A DNA stretch of 40,586 nt from a plasmid. The translations under genes were made by a program, and so were the position numbers. Shown here one piece after another: positions 5,567 to 39,108 of this stretch (position 1 is its first letter; the number at the start of each line of letters is the position of its first letter). The notes under the pieces were generated by a model. The model had not been told where the DNA came from and did not search any database. It saw only the letters and a list, made by a program, of their open reading frames with translations. The stretch lies in assembly GCF_055900595.2 (NCBI RefSeq), contig NZ_JBVWEU010000005.1; one strand, 5' to 3'.

Positions 5567-6100
5567 TTACCAGGTCATTACAGGTAATATCGTAGAAATA
5601 ATCTGTGACTTTGTGACCGCGCCGAAATATCTCCCGTCAAATGAAGATGCGCTGCGGTCAGTCATCAGCAACAGTTCTGATTTACCCAACGTGTACACTT
5701 CACGAATGGCGGGCAGTTTACGCCCGCCCGGATCAACACTTAACGGCTTGCTGTAAGGCAATAACTGTCCGTTGACGTAAACACCATCATCACGAAAAGC
5801 AACTTCATCACCTTTAGCCGCTAAAATCCGCTTCATCATCTCGCCATACCCCCCTGGACAAAAGCCGCTGCCGATGTAACCACGCTTCTGTGCCAGTGAG
5901 AAAATAGCCTTTTCAGGCGGGCAGAAAATTACATAGTCGCCCTTCTCTGGCGCTTTCTGGCTGATTTTGTACAAGCCAACAGGGATACTTTTCGTGGTAT
6001 TGATGCGTAACCCGGCGGCATATCCAAAGCCACACACAACTGCACCAATCAATGAAGCCGAAATAACACCAATGGCGGCATAGCGGGTCATTTTTTTCAT
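5567..6100 (-). CDS. traF: TraF pilin-maturation peptidase (signal peptidase-like)
   Basis: 177 aa, N-terminal TM segment, 4-bp overlap with traG stop; position conserved downstream of traG. Confidence 0.75.
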   Translation of the reverse strand: MKKMTRYAAIGVISASLIGAVVCGFGYAAGLRINTTKSIPVGLYKISQKAPEKGDYVIFCPPEKAIFSLAQKRGYIGSGFCPGGYGEMMKRILAAKGDEVAFRDDGVYVNGQLLPYSKPLSVDPGGRKLPAIREVYTLGKSELLLMTDRSASSFDGRYFGAVTKSQIISTILPVMTW

Positions 6101-8040
6101 ATTGCGATAGCCTCATTACTGGCGTCATCATTCGCGGCAGCTACAGCTCGAATCCGATCGGTAACTTTTGGTGCAGGTACAGAAGCACGAAGCGAGAAAA
6201 TCTCATCTTGGAAAAACAACGGCTGTTTTCCATAGATAGCCGGAAAACCTGCCACATAAATAACCATGTCACCGCGCTCGGTAATCAGACCTTCAGCATT
6301 CTTCTTAGGTCCTGGCATACGCAGGCATTCATCCACTGTCAGAAGTGGGCGCTGTACTTCCTGAATGGTTTTGGATACTCCACCCAATATCGCACTGGCA
6401 CGTTTCCCGCTGGTTGTGATCTGCTCTTTGATAACCGTTGTCTGTCCAGTCAACTTAGAAAGGTGCTCTGCAGTCTCAGTACGGTTAGGTGGATATGCGT
6501 TCTGCACATGGCAGTTAGAGGTTATTGTTTCATCCGGCCCATAACCTGTTTCACGGCTACGCAACTGATTAATATCCTGGCAGATGAGGTAGAACTTGAT
6601 GCCATAACCTGCAAGGAAAGCCAATGATTCCTGAATGATTTCGAGTTTACCCAGACTTGGAAACTCATCGATCATTCCCAGAAGACGATGTTTGTAGGTT
6701 TTCTTTGTCTGTACTCTTTTTGTTCCCTGAACTGAAAAACCAAACGCCTGTTTAAAACGCTGCCATAACGTAAGGTTGTTATCTACACGCTCAAATTCCA
6801 TCTTGTCAGCCAGCAAACGAACAATCATGTTCAGCATGATTCGTACCAGCGGACGCAGACGAGCTTTATCATTAGGCTGAGTAACGATATACAGCGAAAC
6901 CGGATCATCATGATTCATCAGGTCTTTTATTTTAAAATGTGACTCACTGACGTTACGAGCCACAACTGGATCACGGAAAAGGGCGAGATAAGATTTTGCG
7001 GTAGACAGCACGGAACCGGCTTCTTCTTCCGGGCGGTCCATCATGTCACGACCGGCAGCCCCCACCACCGGATGATTCTCGCCATTTATGTGACTATATT
7101 GCGTCATTTCCATCCACAATTCCCCTGCCCCTCTTTCCGGGTCGGCCATGATGGAGTCAACATACGGAAGCGTTGCTGGCGTACCTTCATTTTTGTGCTT
7201 GTAAAGTACATGGAGGATCACACCGACTAAAAGCGCCTGGGATGTTTTCTGCCAGTGGTCATTTAGTCCTTTACCGTCCGGGTCAACTATCAGCGTGGCA
7301 AGATTCTGAACGTCGCCAACTTCGTTTTCAGTGCCCACACGGATTTCATCAAGAGGATTCCAAGCGACGGAACCATTAGCTGCAGCAGGTTCGAATTTCA
7401 GACACAGATTCTTGGCATATTCTTTACGCCAGCCCGCCGTCATCGCCCACAGTTCACCTTTAAGGTCAGCCACTACCGTTGAATGTTTCCAGGAAAGCAA
7501 GGTGGGAACAACCAGGCCGACACCTTTGCCAGAACGGGTAGGTGCATACGTCAGAACATGTTCCGGGCCGTTGTGACGCAGATACCGCAACTGACCGTTT
7601 TTGTCTTCCCACGCACCAACATAAACACCTTCATCATTCAGCAAACCAGCATCTCTGATATCCTGCTCATCAGCCCATCTTGCAGAGCCATGAAGATATT
7701 CGTTAGCCTTGGATGAATTTGCTTTCATCATACTTGTCAGCGCGGTCAGAACTAGGCCACCGGCAGCAACCGCCGCCCCCACACTGCCAGCAGCAAAAAA
7801 CGCATCAGGTAAGCGCTCATGCCATGCTGAATACCATTTGAAATAGGACCACGGCGCATAGATGTGATTAAAGTTCGGCCCCAACAGTTCCTGATAATTA
7901 AAGCTGTAAGCAAAATACTGTGTGGCGGCCTGAATGCCAGCCGCCAGTGAAGTTATAGCCATCGCCGGGATCAGTTTCCCTTTCGCTGCCTTCTTTTTAT
8001 TACGGACCTGCGGCCCTACGGCATTATTTGGCTTTCTCAT
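6097..8040 (-). CDS. traG: type IV coupling protein (TraG/VirD4 family ATPase)
   Basis: 647 aa, N-terminal TM segments, Walker A-like PTRSGKGVG; perfect SD AAGGAG upstream. Confidence 0.9.
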   Translation of the reverse strand: MRKPNNAVGPQVRNKKKAAKGKLIPAMAITSLAAGIQAATQYFAYSFNYQELLGPNFNHIYAPWSYFKWYSAWHERLPDAFFAAGSVGAAVAAGGLVLTALTSMMKANSSKANEYLHGSARWADEQDIRDAGLLNDEGVYVGAWEDKNGQLRYLRHNGPEHVLTYAPTRSGKGVGLVVPTLLSWKHSTVVADLKGELWAMTAGWRKEYAKNLCLKFEPAAANGSVAWNPLDEIRVGTENEVGDVQNLATLIVDPDGKGLNDHWQKTSQALLVGVILHVLYKHKNEGTPATLPYVDSIMADPERGAGELWMEMTQYSHINGENHPVVGAAGRDMMDRPEEEAGSVLSTAKSYLALFRDPVVARNVSESHFKIKDLMNHDDPVSLYIVTQPNDKARLRPLVRIMLNMIVRLLADKMEFERVDNNLTLWQRFKQAFGFSVQGTKRVQTKKTYKHRLLGMIDEFPSLGKLEIIQESLAFLAGYGIKFYLICQDINQLRSRETGYGPDETITSNCHVQNAYPPNRTETAEHLSKLTGQTTVIKEQITTSGKRASAILGGVSKTIQEVQRPLLTVDECLRMPGPKKNAEGLITERGDMVIYVAGFPAIYGKQPLFFQDEIFSLRASVPAPKVTDRIRAVAAANDDASNEAIAI

Positions 8041-8212
8041 GGACTTGCTCCTTTATGTTCCAGTCATCAGCGGTGACGTCCATCACGTTTAACAGTTGTT
8101 GAACCTTGCCTGTATTCAGGCTGGCTTCGTTTGGGTTTCCTGCCAATGCACCACCATGCCCCGTATTTAGCATGGCGAGTAACAGCCCTAATTCTTCGGA
8201 ATTTTGTTTCAT
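8024..8212 (-). CDS. small Gly-rich ORF bridging the traI stop and traG start
   Basis: 62-aa ORF; its start overlaps the traI stop and its end overlaps the traG start. Could be real (translational coupling) or chance. Confidence 0.25.
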   Translation of the reverse strand: MKQNSEELGLLLAMLNTGHGGALAGNPNEASLNTGKVQQLLNVMDVTADDWNIKEQVHEKAK

Positions 8213-10842
8213 CGACTTCTTCCTTTCGTTGTCCTAACTGAACCGGAAGGGGTAAGTGTGACTGACTCCCCGACTTTAAGATTGCTCAGTCTCCGGGCGG
8301 TGTAATCGCTGACAGGCATCACAACAATTTCATCATCCCGTTTTAGCAGGGCTAACGTTTCCAGCCCGCTTTTACGTTGGCCTGCATACTCAAACAGACC
8401 TTTATCAGTAGAATTATACCCTCTATGTTTCGGTATATCGAACCCTTTAAGGCGTTTTTGCTCACGTTCATTGATATATTTTTCAGCACTACTCAGCGGT
8501 TTCTTAACCTCAGCAGGTGTTGTTATTCCTCCTGCCCCAGCCATATCCCGTCGCAGTTGATCAGCACATTCGGCTGTTTTGTGCTCCAGCTGGTCAGAAA
8601 CATTACCCTGCAATAACACTTCACTTCCTCCGGCGATGCGAACCATACCGAGTTCGGACATTGCTCGCAGACGGTTTTTTGCTGTGGGCGGCGGCTGGCG
8701 TCCAGGTCGCGCAACGTTGGGCTTACTATGTCCTCGTTCGCCATTTGGTTCGGCTGCTCGACTTCTCCCTGTACGGGTGTCATCACTCCTTCCTGGCTGG
8801 CTTCCTGCTGTAGTAACAGCATCGCCTGAGCCAATTCGTCTTCTGCTGCTGCTGGTTCCATATCCGTTTCCGGCATCAGCGGAGGTGCTTCGTCCTGTGA
8901 CTCCTGGCTCATTTGCTCCAGTAGCATTGCCATTACCGCTTCGTTCTCGTCCTGCATCGGTTCGTTCTGTTCCGGCATATCTTTGTCGTCTTTGTTCATT
9001 GTCTTTTCCCTCATTCATTCGGATAAAGTTTTCAATCCGATCTCTGGTTGCGTAAGGACCGACAAACCAGGATTTCTTTTCGGTGTCCCACATGGCTCCG
9101 GCTTGCCGGGCCTTGCCTCTTTGCTCAAAGGGGATGTGGATGTATTCACGCTCGCGGGCCGCTTTCTTAGCCAGAATTTGCCTCAACTTTTCCAGTTCAG
9201 GATCGGCAAATGACACGTCCAGCTCACGCGCAGCGGCTACAGCTACAATGCGTTTTTTAAATTCAAAACTGCCGTTAACGGTGAGTTTGTCTCCGTAACG
9301 GTGTTTAGCCATCAGCAGTGCGGCATGAAGACCGTCATCACCAGCATCACGTGATACATCCAGACGTTTACCACCGTCACGGATAGCACTCTCTCCCACG
9401 CGGTAAATAATCGTCCCTTCCTTCGTTACGCTGTCCGGTTTCAATCCAGGGATACGGCCATCTTTTTTGACTTTATCGCCATGCAGAATGTTGGCCTCTT
9501 TACGAGCCCGTTGTGCATTCCGCTGGCGTAAAATTTTTAGCGCTTCATCATCACCACCTGCGGCTTTGAACTGCAGCCAGTCAGCCCATGTACGGCGTTT
9601 ATGAATGTCATAAGCTGCCTGCCGGTCTTTTTTATAAATGGCATTTGCCCGTTCAAGTTCTTCCCCAAGCGCCTTACTTGCCAGACCATATAAATGGCGT
9701 TTATTCACACCCGGTCCTTTCAGTAACTTGATAGCTGCCCGCTTTAACCGGCCTGTCCTTTTGGCATTTTCAATGAGGCGATCACGTTTAACCTTTGCCA
9801 GACGCAGCGCTTCGTTACGGGCAGCAGTAAGCCGTTGCTGTTCACTCTGGTAGCGCCCGTAAAGAACTGAGGTACTTGCACCCTGAGAACCCAGCGGTTT
9901 GCCCTCATAGCGTTTACCACTGTTAATCGACATAACGGGAATCTCCCCAAGGTGAACCTGTCGGTTTTCACGAATTGGTGGGGGGCGTTCTCCGGGCCGC
10001 TTAACATGTACAGCTGAACCGAATCGTTGTTTAATCGCTTCTGGGGAAAGTCTGGAAGGTTTCGTGTCGGGTATGGAAGACTCAAACGAGCCTAATTTCT
10101 TTTCAAGCGCTGCTCGGGACAGAGAGCGATCTACAGAGCTGGCTTTTACAGCAAGGCCATCGGGACCAGTAATAACGAATCCATTCCCTTTCTGGCGTAA
10201 CTCAAGCCCATTCTGGCGCATTGCCTGATGTAACTCTTGCCAGTTAGCCGCTCTCTTTAATTGATCTGCGCACTCCCTCTTTATCCAGCCAAGCAAACTT
10301 TCTCTGCCGGAATGCCTTTCCATATCTGCCGCATTATTTTCGGATCGCGTCTTACTTGCCCGGTGATTATCGCTTTCAAGGCCAAATTCCTTTTCGAGTG
10401 CCATACATACCGCTGAACGGGTTTTGTAATCGTTGTAGGGGGTATGAATGTTGTAAGTTTGTGGATGGATTTTATTTATAGCGATATGGATATGCACATT
10501 ATCAGTGTCGTAATGAACAGCACTGACACGCTGATGATCGGCATACCCCATAGCCGCGCAGATACGTTCTTCTACAGCATCCAGAACCTCCTGTGACGGT
10601 TTTTCTCCAGGACGAAAGGAAACGATAAGGTGATAGGTCTTGTCGCCCGCTGCGCGCGTATTACGCCGTTGTGTAGGCTCAATCTCATAACGGGCCGCAT
10701 CAAGGATATTTTCATGATGACAGTTCGTAACCTTAATAGCACCCACGCGCTCCTGTTTGTTTTGGGGATCTTGCACATACTTGGCAAGCTCAACAAAACT
10801 ACTCTTTTTGACATTTCGCATTGGGATGTGACGCGAAATCAC
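8209..10842 (-). CDS. traI: TraI relaxase (MOBP family) with long Gly/Ser/Arg-rich C-terminal extension
   Basis: N-terminus MISRHIPMRNVKKSSF...VTNC and HYDTDNVHIHIAINKIH match the IncP TraI signature; start codon is GTG (plus-strand CAC at 10840-10842). Confidence 0.9.
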   Translation of the reverse strand: MISRHIPMRNVKKSSFVELAKYVQDPQNKQERVGAIKVTNCHHENILDAARYEIEPTQRRNTRAAGDKTYHLIVSFRPGEKPSQEVLDAVEERICAAMGYADHQRVSAVHYDTDNVHIHIAINKIHPQTYNIHTPYNDYKTRSAVCMALEKEFGLESDNHRASKTRSENNAADMERHSGRESLLGWIKRECADQLKRAANWQELHQAMRQNGLELRQKGNGFVITGPDGLAVKASSVDRSLSRAALEKKLGSFESSIPDTKPSRLSPEAIKQRFGSAVHVKRPGERPPPIRENRQVHLGEIPVMSINSGKRYEGKPLGSQGASTSVLYGRYQSEQQRLTAARNEALRLAKVKRDRLIENAKRTGRLKRAAIKLLKGPGVNKRHLYGLASKALGEELERANAIYKKDRQAAYDIHKRRTWADWLQFKAAGGDDEALKILRQRNAQRARKEANILHGDKVKKDGRIPGLKPDSVTKEGTIIYRVGESAIRDGGKRLDVSRDAGDDGLHAALLMAKHRYGDKLTVNGSFEFKKRIVAVAAARELDVSFADPELEKLRQILAKKAAREREYIHIPFEQRGKARQAGAMWDTEKKSWFVGPYATRDRIENFIRMNEGKDNEQRRQRYAGTERTDAGRERSGNGNATGANEPGVTGRSTSADAGNGYGTSSSRRRIGSGDAVTTAGSQPGRSDDTRTGRSRAAEPNGERGHSKPNVARPGRQPPPTAKNRLRAMSELGMVRIAGGSEVLLQGNVSDQLEHKTAECADQLRRDMAGAGGITTPAEVKKPLSSAEKYINEREQKRLKGFDIPKHRGYNSTDKGLFEYAGQRKSGLETLALLKRDDEIVVMPVSDYTARRLSNLKVGESVTLTPSGSVRTTKGRSR
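8523..9014 (-). CDS. traH: TraH-like acidic protein encoded in an alternate frame inside traI
   Basis: 163-aa highly acidic ORF (E/D/Q-rich), same strand as traI but a different frame; RP4 has traH nested in traI in the same way. Confidence 0.45.
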   Translation of the reverse strand: MREKTMNKDDKDMPEQNEPMQDENEAVMAMLLEQMSQESQDEAPPLMPETDMEPAAAEDELAQAMLLLQQEASQEGVMTPVQGEVEQPNQMANEDIVSPTLRDLDASRRPQQKTVCEQCPNSVWFASPEEVKCYCRVMFLTSWSTKQPNVLINCDGIWLGQEE

Positions 10843-10856
10843 GATGCCCCCAGGAT

Positions 10857-10869
10857 TTTAGCAGCTAAA
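10857..10869. promoter_or_regulatory. KorB operator (OB) TTTAGCAGCTAAA between traJ and traI
   Basis: 13-bp palindrome in the 28-bp gap between the traJ stop and the traI GTG start. Confidence 0.7.
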
Positions 10870-10870
10870 A

Positions 10871-11230
10871 TCATTTGATCAGTATCCTATCCATTACTGT
10901 TCGTAGCTCGTTTTGGGTTGACTCAATTTTTGCCAAAAGAGTTTTGATTAGTGACACGGAAAAATTACGGGTTCTCTCGTCATTGGAAAGCCACAACTTC
11001 AGTAATCCGCCAAGTCGACCTAAATCACCATTTACCCGACTCAGCTCCTGAACCTGTTCAATATCGACCATGGATTCCACTTCATAACCCATTCCAACCT
11101 TACGCAGAAATGCGGCAGTGCTCAGTCCAGCGGCATCTGCGTTGCGCTTAATGATCGCTTCTTCTTCTGGCAGAACTGGCACACGAATGTGCTTGCCATG
11201 CTTACGTGTAGTTTTCACTTGTTCCGTCAT
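10871..11230 (-). CDS. traJ: TraJ oriT-recognition protein
   Basis: 119 aa, directly flanking oriT upstream of traI; SD GAGGT. Confidence 0.8.
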   Translation of the reverse strand: MTEQVKTTRKHGKHIRVPVLPEEEAIIKRNADAAGLSTAAFLRKVGMGYEVESMVDIEQVQELSRVNGDLGRLGGLLKLWLSNDERTRNFSVSLIKTLLAKIESTQNELRTVMDRILIK

Positions 11231-11464
11231 TTGACCTCACTCGCGGCGGTAGCCGCGTAGCCTCGCAGAGCAGGACTCCCCTTGAGAATCGAAGATGCGA
11301 ATAGGGGAGAGTAAAGTTTGATAACCTGTTTACAGGTTAGCTAACTTTACATGTCCTGCCCGGCTTTCGCCGGTGTTTACGCCAAGGAAAGTCTACACAA
11401 AGAAAAGTGGAATGTCGTGTTTTTTGATGTAAAACTGTGGATATAACGAAAAAACGGCGTTACT
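11231..11464. other. oriT: origin of transfer (oriT) between divergent traJ and traK
   Basis: Imperfect 17-bp inverted repeat 11313-11329 / 11332-11348, followed by TGTCCTGCCCGGC resembling the RP4 nic region ATCCTG/CCCGGC; predicted nic between 11358 and 11359. Confidence 0.75.
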
Positions 11465-14097: not shown

Positions 14098-14451
14098 CTA
14101 TCTGGAGAACTTCCGGCCCTGCTTCTCTGTGGCTGCTGCTACCTGAGCTTTACCGGAAGTCTGGTCATACGAAATACTTTTTTCCGTACCTACCTCTGGC
14201 AGTTTATCGAAATTTTGGCGATCATGCTTGAAAATCTGCTTACCTACCTGCTGATATACTGATTGCTTATCTGCGTGTAAAATCGGCCCATTATAAGAGC
14301 TGGCTTTATCCGGCCCCTTGGACAGATAAAGCGGGTAAATGCCTGGCTTTATGCTGCCCGCTCTATCAACATTGTCATTTTTCCATTTTCCAGCTTCTTC
14401 GCTTTGCAGCACTCGCTGGCCGTTCATGACAAGAACACGCTGTTTGCTCAT
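14098..14451 (-). CDS. hypothetical protein (first gene of the kfrA-like operon)
   Basis: 117 aa, perfect SD AAGGAG; no recognisable motif. Confidence 0.5.
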   Translation of the reverse strand: MSKQRVLVMNGQRVLQSEEAGKWKNDNVDRAGSIKPGIYPLYLSKGPDKASSYNGPILHADKQSVYQQVGKQIFKHDRQNFDKLPEVGTEKSISYDQTSGKAQVAAATEKQGRKFSR

Positions 14452-14948
14452 GTCGGTGTTACTCCTTGTGTTATCATCAACCGTCTGTATTGAGATAGGG
14501 CTAACTGCTATTTTTAAGTTGAATCGGCAACTGATTACCCAACTACTCTTTAACCATCATCCAGGTATTCTCCGGCCCTATGGATAAATGCCGTTAAAAA
14601 TGCGTTTGTGGGCTTCTTTCAGGCGCTGTTTGTCGAAAGGACCAAGATAGGGCTTTCTTCCAGCTACGATAAGTTAAGAGCTATTGTGTCACGCTCAATC
14701 CCTCATCCCAGCCAGGTTGATAAGGATGTCAGTACTCTGATACAGATATTGGTGTTTTTGCCGCTCATTCCTAATGTTGTTTTGCATGTTGAGTATGGTT
14801 CTTAACTCTCCCTGCGTCACCTTACTCATAAGTAACATCACCGGTAATGATGCGTTTTTAGGAAATAGCCGCCAGGAACCATGAATTCTCTGCCCTGACG
14901 GAACTACATAGCCCTCAGGTTAAATTTTGTTTAGCTACATCTATACAT

Positions 14949-14961
14949 TTTAGCGGCTAAA
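14949..14961. promoter_or_regulatory. KorB operator (OB) TTTAGCGGCTAAA
   Basis: Perfect 13-bp palindrome. Confidence 0.8.
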
Positions 14962-14983
14962 ATTATGCAATAAATAATATTAA

Positions 14984-15010
14984 TAAAAAAAATCCCGCGA
15001 CTGCGGGATT
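14984..15010 (-). terminator. rho-independent terminator after korB
   Basis: Hairpin AATCCCGC-GACT-GCGGGATT with a T-run on the minus strand, 22 bp past the korB stop. Confidence 0.6.
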
Positions 15011-15031
15011 CTGAGCGGAAATTGATACCTT

Positions 15032-16045
15032 TTATCCTTCAATAAGGCAAATTATTTTCACGTTTTCGAGATTTAGCTCTTCTTCTACACCAGTTGAATC
15101 AAACTTAATCCAGGCAAGCCCTTCTTCACTTGGGCGCTTGGTCAGGATAAGGCGGCCCTGCTCCCCCAGGTACTCAACGATAACAATAGCCTTTTTGAAT
15201 TTATCAGGATCGGTTTCCTTTTCTGGCGTCTTACGGACCTTATCGGTCACATCGTTATCATCGTGGCCGTCCGTATCATCTTCGGCAGCTTCCGAATCGG
15301 TACGGCCATTGAAGGCGTCAATGGTGTCTGGATCACGCTTGCTGGATTCTTTTTCGTCCAGGAACTCACGGAAAACTTTCACCGCACTACGGGTAATGTC
15401 TTCACCCTCGTTCTCTTCAAGCAGTTTTTGAACTTCTTCCGGGTCTTGCTTGTAAGCCGTTACCAGCTCATTAACTACGGTAACATCACGGATTGAACCT
15501 TTATTAAAAGCATCTGCTATACAATCCGGCAGGTCCAGCAACGCTGCGTGTTGGGTTACGAACGCTGGCGACTTGCCAAGCCGTTTAGCAATCTGAGATT
15601 TTGATACCCCCTCAGCCAGTTTGCGGCCAATGTGTACGGCAATTTCACGCGCCGTCAGGTCATTACGCTGGATGTTCTCAATGACCTGATCATCGTCGCT
15701 ATAGTCATTATCGATAAAAGCGGGAATTTGTTTCTTCCCGGCCACTTTACTGGCTCGCCAGCGACGTTCTCCATGGTTAATAATATAGCGCCCCGCTTGC
15801 TCCGGGTTCTCGCGAACGGAGACAGGCATTTTCACACCACGCGCTTTAATGGTATCAGCCAGCTCCTTAATGGATTCCTCTGAGAACCCTGGGTTGTCCT
15901 GCTTACGCGGTTGTTCAGGATCGGGATCAATCGCATCAACGTCCAGCATCAGTGGTTTACCCTCAGCACCTGCAGACGCATCAAGAAAGTCGGAGAGATC
16001 ACCAACGGTATCAAGGCCAAGGCCGGAAGAATTTTTTTTAGTCAT
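15032..16045 (-). CDS. korB: KorB (ParB-family partitioning protein and global repressor)
   Basis: 337 aa, ParB-like, acidic linker, follows incC with start/stop overlap; its cognate operators are scattered across the window. Confidence 0.85.
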   Translation of the reverse strand: MTKKNSSGLGLDTVGDLSDFLDASAGAEGKPLMLDVDAIDPDPEQPRKQDNPGFSEESIKELADTIKARGVKMPVSVRENPEQAGRYIINHGERRWRASKVAGKKQIPAFIDNDYSDDDQVIENIQRNDLTAREIAVHIGRKLAEGVSKSQIAKRLGKSPAFVTQHAALLDLPDCIADAFNKGSIRDVTVVNELVTAYKQDPEEVQKLLEENEGEDITRSAVKVFREFLDEKESSKRDPDTIDAFNGRTDSEAAEDDTDGHDDNDVTDKVRKTPEKETDPDKFKKAIVIVEYLGEQGRLILTKRPSEEGLAWIKFDSTGVEEELNLENVKIICLIEG

Positions 16046-16811: not shown

Positions 16812-17156
16812 CTATTCTTCCTGTTTACGTTTTGCCTCGTCAGCCCACTTTTTAACAATGAAAGCCTGCCGCTCCGGTAACACTACTTCAATACGCACAA
16901 AACCGTCAGGTACTTCTTGTTTATAGGCATCCCACACTCTGTTAACTGCCTGAGAAACAGCCCCGCGAGAAATATCCAGCGTTTCAACAAAATATTTCTG
17001 CGGTCTTCCTTCAACCAGTACGCCGTAAGCGATATCAAGCGTTTGCTTACCAACATTCAGGCTTCGGGTAACTCTTGCAAATACCTCATTAGTCAGGCGT
17101 TTTTTTTCATTGCCCGTTTTGGCAACATGCGGATCATTATTATTAACAGTCGTCAT
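16812..17156 (-). CDS. korA: KorA-like repressor
   Basis: Track ORF starts at 17213, which would place the start inside the KorA operator; the internal ATG at 17154-17156 has an SD and gives ~114 aa. C-terminus carries the PDGFVRIEVVLPERQAFIVKKW motif also seen in TrbA and KlcB. Confidence 0.7.
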   Translation of the reverse strand: MTTVNNNDPHVAKTGNEKKRLTNEVFARVTRSLNVGKQTLDIAYGVLVEGRPQKYFVETLDISRGAVSQAVNRVWDAYKQEVPDGFVRIEVVLPERQAFIVKKWADEAKRKQEE

Positions 17157-17214: not shown

Positions 17215-17226
17215 GTTTAGCTAAAC
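17215..17226. promoter_or_regulatory. KorA operator (OA) GTTTAGCTAAAC
   Basis: Perfect 12-bp palindrome identical to the RK2 class I KorA operator, upstream of korA. Confidence 0.8.
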
Positions 17227-17246
17227 CACGTGTGCAGGTCAATAAT

Positions 17247-17259
17247 TTTAGCTGCTAAA
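17247..17259. promoter_or_regulatory. KorB operator (OB) TTTAGCTGCTAAA
   Basis: 13-bp palindrome with central T, 20 bp from OA; OA plus OB pairing as at RK2 korAp. Confidence 0.75.
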
Positions 17260-18956: not shown

Positions 18957-20075
18957 TCACGATTCACCTGTTTTGTTGTCTTCCAGTAATTTCAGTTGAT
19001 CAATATTGTAAAAAGTACGAACGCAAGTAGGGTCAAAATCCACTACCTGAGTTCCGCGACGGTTGATTCGATAACGTATAGGCTTATCTTCATGCGCCTC
19101 CACACATCCTGAATCGTATATCGTAACGATTTTTACAATAGTGCCAATATTTTTAGCAAACACCGGATGATGCACACTCACGATTTCACATCGAGCACCA
19201 ACGTAAAATTCTTTATAACGCTGAACAGTAATCATCCGCTCTTTGTATTCTTTGGAACGCTCCTTTGCCAGTTGCTTGCGCCGTTCGCTTTCGGCCCGCA
19301 TAGTTTCTCTTTCAGCCTCCCGCTCTCTCTGCATAATAGCTGTAATGCGTTCCTGAGCTGCTACAGCCCATTTACGGGCGATAAATGCTTTAGAGGCGGG
19401 TAATAACGCCTCGACCCTAACAAAGCCGTCAGGGAGCGTTAGAGGCGTTCTATCAGGGGGGGGCGAAAGGGATTTTAACCAATCAGGCAAAGGCTCAGAT
19501 GCCAGCCTGTCACGGAAATCAGCAGAGATAAAAGCAGGTTTCTTTCTGGCGTCAATCAGGCTTTGAAATACGCGGGATACGTGTGCATCAACGGTTTCTC
19601 CAGGTCTGACTTCTGAAAGCCTAACAAAATGCGAACGATACCCTGTTTCGGATACAAAGGGTGCGCCTAAATCAACGGCATGAAACGAGGTGGAAAGATA
19701 CCCCATCATACATCCGGCTTCGACCTTAACCCTTGCTCGCATACCACTGAAACTTTCGATGATAAAATCACCGTGCTGACCCCACATAGGAACGCTACCG
19801 TCATCAGCACGGCAATATTCACTGATAACATGAGCCGCTTCATGTTCACCGGCATTACACCCAAAGAAGGTTTTACCGTTCATTTTCCAGATACAGGCTT
19901 CAAACCGGTACACAGCATCATGACGCTGTTGCAGATCACCGGTCATACAGGCTTTATTCAAATCAATTAGCGCTGAGTACGCCGCGTCCAGAATGCGATG
20001 GTCGTCCGGCAGCTGCTGCGCAATGGCTTCCATTTGCTGATCGCGAGAGTCATCGCCAGGATAATGTTTGGACAT
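18957..20075 (-). CDS. klcB: KlcB-like protein
   Basis: 372 aa; contains LPDGFVRVEALLPASKAFIARKW, the KorA/TrbA-type C-terminal motif; position after klcA. Confidence 0.6.
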   Translation of the reverse strand: MSKHYPGDDSRDQQMEAIAQQLPDDHRILDAAYSALIDLNKACMTGDLQQRHDAVYRFEACIWKMNGKTFFGCNAGEHEAAHVISEYCRADDGSVPMWGQHGDFIIESFSGMRARVKVEAGCMMGYLSTSFHAVDLGAPFVSETGYRSHFVRLSEVRPGETVDAHVSRVFQSLIDARKKPAFISADFRDRLASEPLPDWLKSLSPPPDRTPLTLPDGFVRVEALLPASKAFIARKWAVAAQERITAIMQREREAERETMRAESERRKQLAKERSKEYKERMITVQRYKEFYVGARCEIVSVHHPVFAKNIGTIVKIVTIYDSGCVEAHEDKPIRYRINRRGTQVVDFDPTCVRTFYNIDQLKLLEDNKTGES

Positions 20076-20679: not shown

Positions 20680-20886
20680 TTATTTCCCGACAAATTCTGG
20701 ATACAGCAACCACCCAATAACAATGATACATGCAATATCAAAAAATAGAGAACAGTATAAATAAATACCTTCTGCTTTAATAAATTTTGTGAAGTGTGAA
20801 TTAAACAAATCAGCACTTATATTCTCTTTGAGATCTTTATTCATTTTCTTGGCGTCAATCATCGCGTCAATTGACTTTATTAGCAA
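20680..20886 (-). CDS. small AT-rich hydrophobic ORF (possible membrane peptide)
   Basis: 68 aa, hydrophobic C-terminus, low GC; no convincing SD checked. Confidence 0.25.
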   Translation of the reverse strand: MLIKSIDAMIDAKKMNKDLKENISADLFNSHFTKFIKAEGIYLYCSLFFDIACIIVIGWLLYPEFVGK

Positions 20887-21366
20887 TCAAAATGGAACAT
20901 GGAGCCACCAATTTAGAACATTCGAAAAATGATCCAATTTCGCATAACGATTCTAAGACGATCCCTTTAAAGCCCTTCTTTCTGGCGTAAACCCTCCGGT
21001 TCTGTAGCGCATCAGTATTTTGAAGTGTGCTTGGTATCTCTAGCGAGTATCTATGCCCGGCAAAGGTACTTTGCCGAGAGCGAAGCGGCCTATGCTCGCG
21101 TAGCGAGTGAGTCATCTTTGGGGTGAAGACCGCTTGCGGTCGAGGGGCTTGCCCCTGGGGGGATGGGAGGCCGCTTGCGGCCGGGAGGGATTGAGAAGGG
21201 GGGTTTCCCCCCTTCGGGGGCGTCGTTAGACGCGGTTAAAAATAAGGTTAATTTTTTTGGTTAAAAGTGGTTAAAGGATCGGTTAAAAGATCGGTTAAAG
21301 ATCTGGTTAGAGGGGTGTGCAAAACTCAATTAAAGCCATGATTATTAAGGGGAAAAATATCCACAT

Positions 21367-23024: not shown

Positions 23025-23036
23025 GTTTAGCTAAAC
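23025..23036. promoter_or_regulatory. KorA operator (OA) GTTTAGCTAAAC
   Basis: Perfect 12-bp palindrome between divergent ssb-trfA and trbA. Confidence 0.8.
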
Positions 23037-23055
23037 AATTTAATTCGGTCAATAT

Positions 23056-23068
23056 TTTAGCCGCTAAA
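23056..23068. promoter_or_regulatory. KorB operator (OB) TTTAGCCGCTAAA
   Basis: Perfect 13-bp palindrome 20 bp from OA. Confidence 0.8.
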
Positions 23069-23147
23069 ATTTACATCGAGGCGTAAGCGTATCGTGTACA
23101 ACCTAATTTTTTTTACTAACATCCTCAGACTTCTTGAAGAAAGAGAC

Positions 23148-23498
23148 ATGACAAAGCAGGAACTATCCCAAAAAGCTGGGGTTTCAATCTCTTTTTTGTC
23201 GGACCTAACAAATGGAAAAGCGAACCCATCTTTAAGGGTGATGGAATCCATTGCTAATGCCCTCGATGTAGCCCTTCCCGTTCTCCTTGAAACAACTGAC
23301 CTTGATGAACACAGTCTTATGCTTATGGCTGATGGAAAACCTGTAAAAAGTCTCCCTCCCGGATATGTAAGAGTGTCCGTAATTCTTTCTGAACAGCAAG
23401 CCTTTCGGGTACGAATGTGGAGTGAACATACACGTCAGAAGTTAGAGCAAGAAGCCAAAGCAATGCTGGAGATCATGCAAGAAAAGAAAAACAGTTAA
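23148..23498 (+). CDS. trbA: TrbA-like repressor (XRE HTH plus KorA-type C-terminal domain)
   Basis: Track ORF starts at 23094; the ATG at 23148 (MTKQELSQKAGVSISFLSDL...) starts the HTH. C-terminal motif PPGYVRVSVILSEQQAFRVRMW. Confidence 0.7.
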   Translation: MTKQELSQKAGVSISFLSDLTNGKANPSLRVMESIANALDVALPVLLETTDLDEHSLMLMADGKPVKSLPPGYVRVSVILSEQQAFRVRMWSEHTRQKLEQEAKAMLEIMQEKKNS

Positions 23499-23545: not shown

Positions 23546-23680
23546 AAACATCCCCTTTCCCGTCTTCGAACTACCAATAATTTCACTTTAATGTTTGCTT
23601 AACTATTGCCTGAAAACTTGTTTCGTTATATCGTTTGTCGTAATTCCCATTATAAACGCAGTAAAAATAAAGGATGAATT

Positions 23681-31469: not shown

Positions 31470-32240
31470 ATGAATACACGTTTCGTTTTAGCCGCTAAAA
31501 AAGCGTTACTAGCTTCCTTCGTGGCGTCAATCATGGCCCTACCTGCGAAAGCTGGTATTCCTGTTATTGATGCTACTAATGTGGTGCAGACCACAATCAG
31601 CGCTGTCAATAACGTTCAGGCTGTGGCTAAACAGATCCAACAGTATCAGACGCAGTTGCAACAATATGAAAACATGCTGAGAAACACAGTCGCACCTGCG
31701 GCCTATATATGGGATCAGGCCAATTCAACTATCAACAAATTATTGCAGGCACAGGACACTCTTAATTACTACAAAAATCAGGCCGGGAGTCTTGACTCAT
31801 ATCTAAAACGTTATCAGGACATTAATTACTACCGTTCATCGCCATGCTTTAACAGTAATGTTGAATGCACTGCAGATGAAATTAGCGCACTACGTAAAGC
31901 TGAACAAAATAACTCTGAGGCTCGTAAAAAGGCCAATGACGCTGTTTTTAAGGTTCTCGATGAACAGCAAGAAACACTGCAAAGAGATGCAGATAACCTT
32001 GCTGACTTACAAACTCAAGTAACTGGAGCACAGGGGCAAATGGAAGCTATTCAGGCCGCTAACCAGCTTGCCAGTGCGCAAACAAACCAGTTACTGCAAA
32101 TCCGCTCGCTTCTAGTTGCCCAGCAAAACGCTGCAACTACACTGGCGCAGGCTCAGGCCGATAAAGAGGCCCAGCAAGCGGCTGCATCAGAAACTTTTAG
32201 GGCAGGGACTTATACCAAAAGCCCCGCTCAATCTTGGTAA
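31470..32240 (+). CDS. trbJ: TrbJ (VirB5-like)
   Basis: 256 aa, signal peptide, coiled-coil; codons 5-10 carry a KorB operator. Confidence 0.8.
   Translation: MNTRFVLAAKKALLASFVASIMALPAKAGIPVIDATNVVQTTISAVNNVQAVAKQIQQYQTQLQQYENMLRNTVAPAAYIWDQANSTINKLLQAQDTLNYYKNQAGSLDSYLKRYQDINYYRSSPCFNSNVECTADEISALRKAEQNNSEARKKANDAVFKVLDEQQETLQRDADNLADLQTQVTGAQGQMEAIQAANQLASAQTNQLLQIRSLLVAQQNAATTLAQAQADKEAQQAAASETFRAGTYTKSPAQSW
31487..31499. promoter_or_regulatory. KorB operator (OB) TTTAGCCGCTAAA inside the trbJ coding sequence
   Basis: Perfect 13-bp palindrome encoding part of the TrbJ signal peptide (FVLAAKK). Confidence 0.7.
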
Positions 32241-37012: not shown

Positions 37013-37025
37013 TTTAGCCGCTAAA
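37013..37025. promoter_or_regulatory. KorB operator (OB) TTTAGCCGCTAAA
   Basis: Perfect 13-bp palindrome. Confidence 0.8.
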
Positions 37026-39095: not shown

Positions 39096-39108
39096 TTTAG
39101 CCGCTAAA
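39096..39108. promoter_or_regulatory. KorB operator (OB) TTTAGCCGCTAAA
   Basis: Perfect 13-bp palindrome 12 bp after the stop of the RHH-HTH gene. Confidence 0.8.

Follow-up and report, generated by a model that had tools for sequence, protein, structure and literature searches.

In the 40,586-nucleotide stretch of plasmid DNA analysed here (the window), traJ and traI are neighbours on the minus strand. The traJ ORF (10871 to 11230) encodes an oriT-binding relaxosome protein of 119 amino acids, as indicated by a NikA-like Pfam match (E = 4e-21) and by the traJ annotation in NZ_CP075702.1. The traI ORF (8209 to 10842) encodes a MOBP relaxase of 877 amino acids with the Pfam domains Relaxase, TraI_middle and TraI-like_C, and its GTG start is supported by the N-terminus MI(A/S)(K/R)H.PMR, which is conserved in relatives. 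The gap between the two genes is 28 nt long and contains the palindrome TTTAGCAGCTAAA, read on the plus strand at 10857 to 10869, which is separated by 1 nt from the traJ stop codon and by 14 nt from the GTG. The order on the minus strand is ATC AAA TGA (traJ stop, 10873 to 10871), T, TTTAGCTGCTAAA, ATCCT-GGGGG-CATC and GTG (10842 to 10840). The GGGGG at 10847 to 10851 (minus strand), between the palindrome and the GTG, reads as the traI Shine-Dalgarno sequence. Most relatives have a G-rich Shine-Dalgarno sequence at the same place, which is weak or missing in pHNFP671, in pAcX50c and in the Xylella plasmid. The initial annotation had placed the site in a 28-bp gap, just after the traJ stop codon and about 15 bp from the GTG, and this layout proved accurate.

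Both 6-base arms of the palindrome are those of the IncP-1 KorB operator TTTAGC(G/C)GCTAAA, and 12 of the 13 positions match. The sole departure from the RK2 consensus is the central base of the dyad, which is A/T rather than G/C. A flanking T and A lengthen the palindrome to 15 bp (10856 to 10870). Since the central base is off consensus, the affinity of KorB for this site could be lower. The operator at the korA promoter (17247, with a KorA operator at 17215) shares the A/T centre, which argues that the A/T variant is functional, and an A/T base at the dyad centre appears to be tolerated.

We searched the 40.6-kb window for TTTAGCSGCTAAA with at most one mismatch, using 100 dinucleotide-preserving shuffles as the control. 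The window contained 12 KorB-operator matches as against 0.04 expected, a number that none of the 100 shuffles reached. Eight of these sites were perfect and three, including the one between traJ and traI, differed at the centre alone; the remaining site, inside a traC-like gene, had an arm mismatch. R751 likewise carries 12 operators, and about 10 positions are common to the two plasmids. Given as window and R751 coordinates, these operators lie inside traC (1909 and 41267, degenerate in both), inside traF (5813 and 46603), in the traJ/traI gap (10857 and 51058), at the kfr/traM end (13255 and 834), in the korB-kfr gap (14949 and 2481), at korAp (17247 and 4789), in the kle region (18676 and 6444), at trfAp/trbAp (23056 and 16902), in the trbA-trbB gap (23533 and 17375) and at the trbI/trbJ junction (31487 and 25579). 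The whole KorB operator constellation, including the sites in coding regions, is kept in this divergent enterobacterial lineage.

Some of the operators are located within or at the edge of coding regions, at 1909 to 1921 (traC-like), 5813 to 5825 (traF) and 31487 to 31499 (trbI/trbJ junction). The mismatches of the traC site differ between the plasmids, the window reading TTTAGCGACTAAA and R751 TTTAGCGGCTGAA.

The window is a complete E. coli plasmid of the IncP/P-1 type and is 99 to 100% identical (summarised as 99.5%) to the E. coli plasmid pSTEC2018_607-e (NZ_CP075702.1, 40.8 kb), the whole circle of which is covered. The sole sizeable difference from NZ_CP075702.1 is an indel-rich stretch (20681 to 21077) on the oriV side; in total the window is shorter by 206 bp. 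The plasmid is conjugative (MPF_T/MOBP) and has an IncP-1 backbone consisting of trfA-ssb, trbA-trbB..., korA-incC-korB, kfrB/C and traM-L-K/oriT/traJ-I-G-F-E-C. Its relatives include pJJ1886_4 and, at a greater distance, pHNFP671. These relatives appear to fall in or near the IncP/P-1 "clade II" of Hayakawa et al. (PMC9499019), whose tree was built without the window plasmid. The members of the lineage include mcr-1-bearing plasmids, for example pHNFP671 and relatives of pMCR_1511.

We then compared the traJ/traI junction with that of 19 other plasmids: R751, 16 diverse plasmids picked over a TraJ identity range of 75% to about 41%, and two close relatives. In this comparison, pBS228 (alpha) and R751 (beta) stand in for RK2. 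The palindrome was present at the junction in 18 of the 19 plasmids, i.e. in R751, in 15 of the 16 diverse plasmids and in the close relatives pYDC107_41 and pJJ1886_4. Operators with perfect arms were found in p588889_3, pHNFP671, pAcX50c (Azotobacter), Variovorax RA8 plasmid 4, Xylella pXF-CO33, Vibrio pVb1636, pMCBF6, pBS228, pMHAD031, pRSB223, pBAM1, pYKBG036, a Sphingobium plasmid, pKS77 and a Neisseria gonorrhoeae conjugative plasmid. The junction reads TGA-CTTC-TTTAGCGGCTAAA-17 nt-ATG in R751 and TGA-CTTT-TTTAGCCGCTAAA-17 nt-GTG in the IncP-1alpha plasmid pBS228. The operator stood 13 to 17 nt from the start of traI in nearly all relatives, and in two plasmids it overlapped the traJ stop codon. 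A five-way alignment of the close relatives showed that the arms TTTTAGC and GCTAAAA were invariant and the centre was T or G, whereas the flanking gap and codons diverged. Invariant arms around a variable centre are the pattern expected of a symmetric DNA site bound by a dimer, in which the base at the dyad centre is not read. The excess of sites over expectation and the positional conservation together rule out a chance occurrence of the palindrome. They also uphold, with the match of both arms to the consensus, the assignment of 10857 to 10869 as a KorB operator in the initial annotation.

The sole exception among the 19 plasmids was Legionella pPC1000_2, with no operator at its traJ/traI junction. 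In this plasmid the gap (1843 to 1880) has the sequence ACTTCTTTATAGCCCAAAGTGCGG, perhaps what is left of a decayed operator, or else a binding site for a KorB of other specificity.

Judged by sequence and position, the palindrome is the ortholog of OB4 of RK2/RP4 and R751. The resemblance comprises the 13-bp TTTAGCNGCTAAA palindrome, preceded by the traJ stop codon and followed by the traI ribosome-binding site, the same backbone operator set elsewhere, and the same regulators KorB, KorA and TrbA. The differences from OB4 of RK2/R751 are the A/T instead of G/C centre, a gap of 28 rather than 34 nt, and a distance to the traI start of 14 rather than 17 nt. In addition, the plasmid that carries the site is a member of a divergent enterobacterial IncP/P-1 lineage, its TraJ being about 53% identical to the alpha protein and its TraI 877 amino acids long. 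The feature is therefore already known as OB4, which the initial annotation had not recognised: its counterpart has been described since the sequence analyses of RP4/RK2 in the early 1990s and is conserved across the IncP-1 family. The KorB sites of the transfer regions are said to have been mapped, and this site first noted, by Balzer et al. in 1992 and Pansegrau et al. in 1994. OB4 of RP4 is located in the traJ-traI gap, and KorB represses traGp via OB4 and leaves traJp unaffected, according to PMC7314908, which cites Bingle et al. 2005 for the latter effect.

The proteins that would act on the operator are encoded in the window. The korB gene (15032 to 16045, minus strand) encodes an operator-binding CTPase of the ParB family with the Pfam domains ParB_N, KorB and KorB_C. 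Comparison with the PDB gave E = 1e-91 for 8qa8 and E = 7.5e-63 for 1r71, the DNA-binding domain of RK2 KorB. Alignment to RK2 KorB showed that the equivalents of R116/R117 (GERRWR), N146 (ENIQRN), T211, R240 and F249 (FREF) were conserved. T211 and R240 are reportedly the residues that read the operator (ascribed to Khare et al. in 2004). R116/R117 and N146 function in CTP binding and clamp closure, and F249 belongs to the partner interface (PMC11790492; bioRxiv 10.64898/2026.05.27.728120). The korA gene (16812 to 17156, minus strand) encodes the clamp-locking co-repressor (Pfam KORA, E = 6e-26; PDB KorA, E = 1.5e-29), which has an aromatic residue, F, at the Y84 position when aligned to RK2 KorA. 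The second KorB co-repressor is encoded by trbA (23094 to 23498, plus strand), recognised by an HTH_3 domain and the KorA-like C-terminal motif LSEQQAFRVRMW. This motif aligns with R751 TrbA and KorA, with the F in a QAF motif, so that the aromatic residue of the interface is retained in KorA and TrbA alike. KorB and both of its known co-repressors are present and, from the conserved residues, look functional.

A 372-aa ORF at 18957 to 20075 (minus strand) contains GFVRVEALLPASKAFIARKWAVAAQ, a motif like the KorA/TrbA C-terminal domain, and resembles IncP-1 KlcB. On account of this resemblance, it may encode a third KorB-interacting protein.

KorB loads at OB, binds CTP and closes as a sliding clamp; its repression reaches promoters at a distance of at least 1.5 kb, and operator-bound KorA locks the clamp at promoters (PMC11790492). 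TrbA also locks the KorB clamp, as described in a 2026 preprint (bioRxiv 10.64898/2026.05.27.728120). Neither of these two clamp papers makes specific mention of OB4, traG or traJ.

The traG gene (6097 to 8040, minus strand, ATG at 8040; mapped from the NZ_CP075702.1 annotation) encodes the coupling protein and is the likely regulated target. A promoter scan detected a candidate traGp, TCGATA-17-TATAAT with 10 of 12 matches, at 8413 to 8441 (minus strand), within the 3' end of traI. The -35 region of this candidate is overlapped by a palindrome resembling a TrbA operator, CGGTATATCG, found by motif search at 8431 to 8440. The element precedes the traI stop codon by about 220 bp, and an identical CGGTATATCGAA occupies the same relative place in R751 (49019). 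We take the TrbA operator consensus to be CGATATATCG, a choice backed by such sites before trbB and within traI, in R751 as well as in the window. The sole other close match in R751 is a perfect CGATATATCG just upstream of trbB, the promoter of which is the classic TrbA-regulated promoter, and the window contains a related CGTTATATCG at 23624, also upstream of trbB. In view of the R751 counterpart and the trbB sites, 8413 to 8441 can be read as a traG promoter that contains a TrbA operator, and the element is likely traGp. It is situated about midway between two distal KorB operators, the one at 10857, 2.43 kb upstream, and the one inside traF, 2.62 kb downstream. The latter, TTTAGCCGCTAAA at 5813 to 5825, has an orthologous traF site in R751. 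The distance from the junction operator to the candidate traGp is 2.4 kb in the window compared with about 2.0 kb in R751.

Beyond the junction in the opposite direction, the oriT contains a nic-like GTCCTG/CCCGG (plus strand, around 11351 to 11363) beside an inverted repeat of the 19-bp type. On the trailing side of nic, about 0.5 kb separate it from the operator at 10857. The sequence TTCGTTATATCC (around 11439 to 11451) resembles the TrbA-site region of the RP4 oriT.

We consider it probable that the OB4 ortholog is a promoter-distal class III loading site, from which KorB-CTP clamps are captured by TrbA at the Tra1 promoters. Sliding, capture and target are features that we infer for this plasmid by analogy with the behaviour of RK2 OB4. 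KorB dimers would nucleate on the palindrome, which is part of the traJ-traI-... transcription unit, and, with CTP bound, would form a closed clamp that moves along the DNA until it is caught by operator-bound TrbA. The main candidate for the place of capture would be the conserved TrbA-operator/promoter taken as traGp, 2.4 kb downstream in the 3' end of traI; further possible targets would be the TrbA sites of traJp/traKp, which lie in oriT about 0.5 kb upstream. The operator would work with no promoter of its own, and it would add one KorB-occupied position to the partition and silencing network of the plasmid. The initial annotation had suggested a class III distant site as one possibility, and the suggestion agrees with the description of the orthologous RK2/RP4 OB4 in PMC7314908, which refers to Bingle et al.; for this plasmid, the class would hold by analogy.

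A minus-strand scan of traJ and the gap detected no promoter-like or terminator-like site, the scan being a weak one that also missed traJp and the oriT promoters. The search of the window for OA placed no KorA operator beside the traJ/traI site. Among the candidate regulated promoters that have a TrbA-operator-like site, the closest is at a distance of 2.4 kb, and the oriT promoters are about 0.4 to 0.6 kb away; if these respond to KorB, the site would be class II for them. The sliding distance shown in experiment is 1.5 kb, as against the 2.4 kb needed here.

It is unlikely that the site is instead an additional centromere-like (parS-type) KorB site, serving partition or compaction by IncC/KorB with little regulatory role. 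In favour of such a role, KorB is the ParB of the IncC/KorB system (Pfam ParB_N; bioRxiv 10.64898/2026.05.27.728120). The site is also far from any recognisable promoter, and conserved operators occur in the coding regions of traF, traC and trbJ, where a promoter is not expected. However, the partition site of RK2 is regarded as OB3, which is different from OB4 and counts against this explanation. A regulatory effect of RK2 OB4 on traGp has moreover been reported (PMC7314908). The partition and regulatory roles are compatible and do not exclude each other.

The close placement of the operator against the traI ribosome-binding site exceeds what a pure loading-site model requires. A minimal intercistronic gap may be all that lies behind it. 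Given that the placement is near-invariant among plasmids whose TraJ proteins are about 45 to 55% identical, a position-specific function beyond clamp loading can be envisaged, through polymerase-swept clamps or through the TraJ:TraI ratio, but we regard it as quite improbable. In the former variant, RNA polymerase from traJp would push KorB clamps down the operon to the TrbA-bound traG promoter, and, if true, the swept clamps would couple transcription of the relaxosome genes to expression of the coupling protein. In the latter, transient occupancy by KorB would set the TraJ:TraI ratio.

The initial annotation had also proposed that KorB tunes the relaxase independently of traJ. KorB in the gap would then control traI apart from traJ, either by repressing a traI-specific promoter or as a roadblock or attenuator for transcripts from traJp, and would so set the TraJ:TraI ratio. 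This proposal draws on the fact that the operator abuts the traI ribosome-binding site with the nearly constant spacing noted above, but it found no support, and we judge it very improbable. A promoter downstream of the operator would have no room in the 14 nt that are filled by the ribosome-binding site, and the minus-strand scan, with the weakness already mentioned, detected none upstream of it. In RP4, traI is transcribed solely from traJp, which KorB at OB4 spares, and traJ, traI and traH are induced together (PMC7314908). A stable roadblock is unlikely, since CTP-bound clamps of the ParB type leave their loading site (bioRxiv 10.64898/2026.05.27.728120).

A role at the RNA level, by which a hairpin in the traJ-traI mRNA would affect translational coupling, traI initiation or mRNA stability, is hardly credible: the palindrome can indeed form a hairpin (8 bp, A/U-rich) immediately before the Shine-Dalgarno sequence, but the stability of the junction fold does not exceed that of shuffled sequence (z = 0.08; 100 of 200 shuffles gave folds as stable), the Shine-Dalgarno sequence is left unsequestered in the fold, the same 13-mer occurs at 11 other, unrelated places in the window, and the arms are invariant rather than covarying over very divergent plasmids, which fits recognition of DNA by a protein.

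As a probable promoter-distal loading site for KorB clamps, the operator resembles the ParB-parS sites of chromosomal ParB, Noc and VirB, where a ParB-fold CTPase closes on a palindromic nucleation site and slides off. The KorB of the window retains the GxRR and ENxQR residues of the CTP motifs. In contrast to ParB-parS, the KorB clamp serves mainly for transcriptional silencing, with KorA or TrbA locking it at promoters, and the site lies inside an operon, not near an origin. The candidate traGp, placed between operators at 2.4 and 2.6 kb, would be a natural test case for the reach of KorB-CTP and for capture by TrbA.

The operator also shares its recognition sequence and protein with the promoter-proximal class I operators (such as korAp OB1 and trfAp OB10), which are exemplified in the window by those at 17247 and 23056. 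Unlike these, the operator between traJ and traI is without a neighbouring KorA operator, and the hundreds of bp around it contain no recognisable promoter. Perfect KorA operators (GTTTAGCTAAAC) stand about 31 bp from a KorB operator twice, at 17215 to 17259, the korA promoter, and at 23025 to 23068, the divergent trfA/trbA promoter region, which matches the class I arrangement of RK2. These two, at 17215 and 23025, are the only perfect OA sites in the window.

Two further features of the operator set were observed outside the transfer genes. The region from korB to kfrB (14452 to 15031) has no ORF of the size of kfrA, the longest being 82 aa (14339 to 14587, overlapping the kfrB start) and 65 aa (14608 to 14805), yet a perfect operator is present at 14949, the place of the kfrA promoter operator in RK2 and R751. 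Two perfect KorB operators without a counterpart position in R751 (37013 to 37025 and 39096 to 39108) are intergenic and lie on the accessory side, where their neighbours are hypothetical genes, a gene of the Hha family and a recombinase gene.
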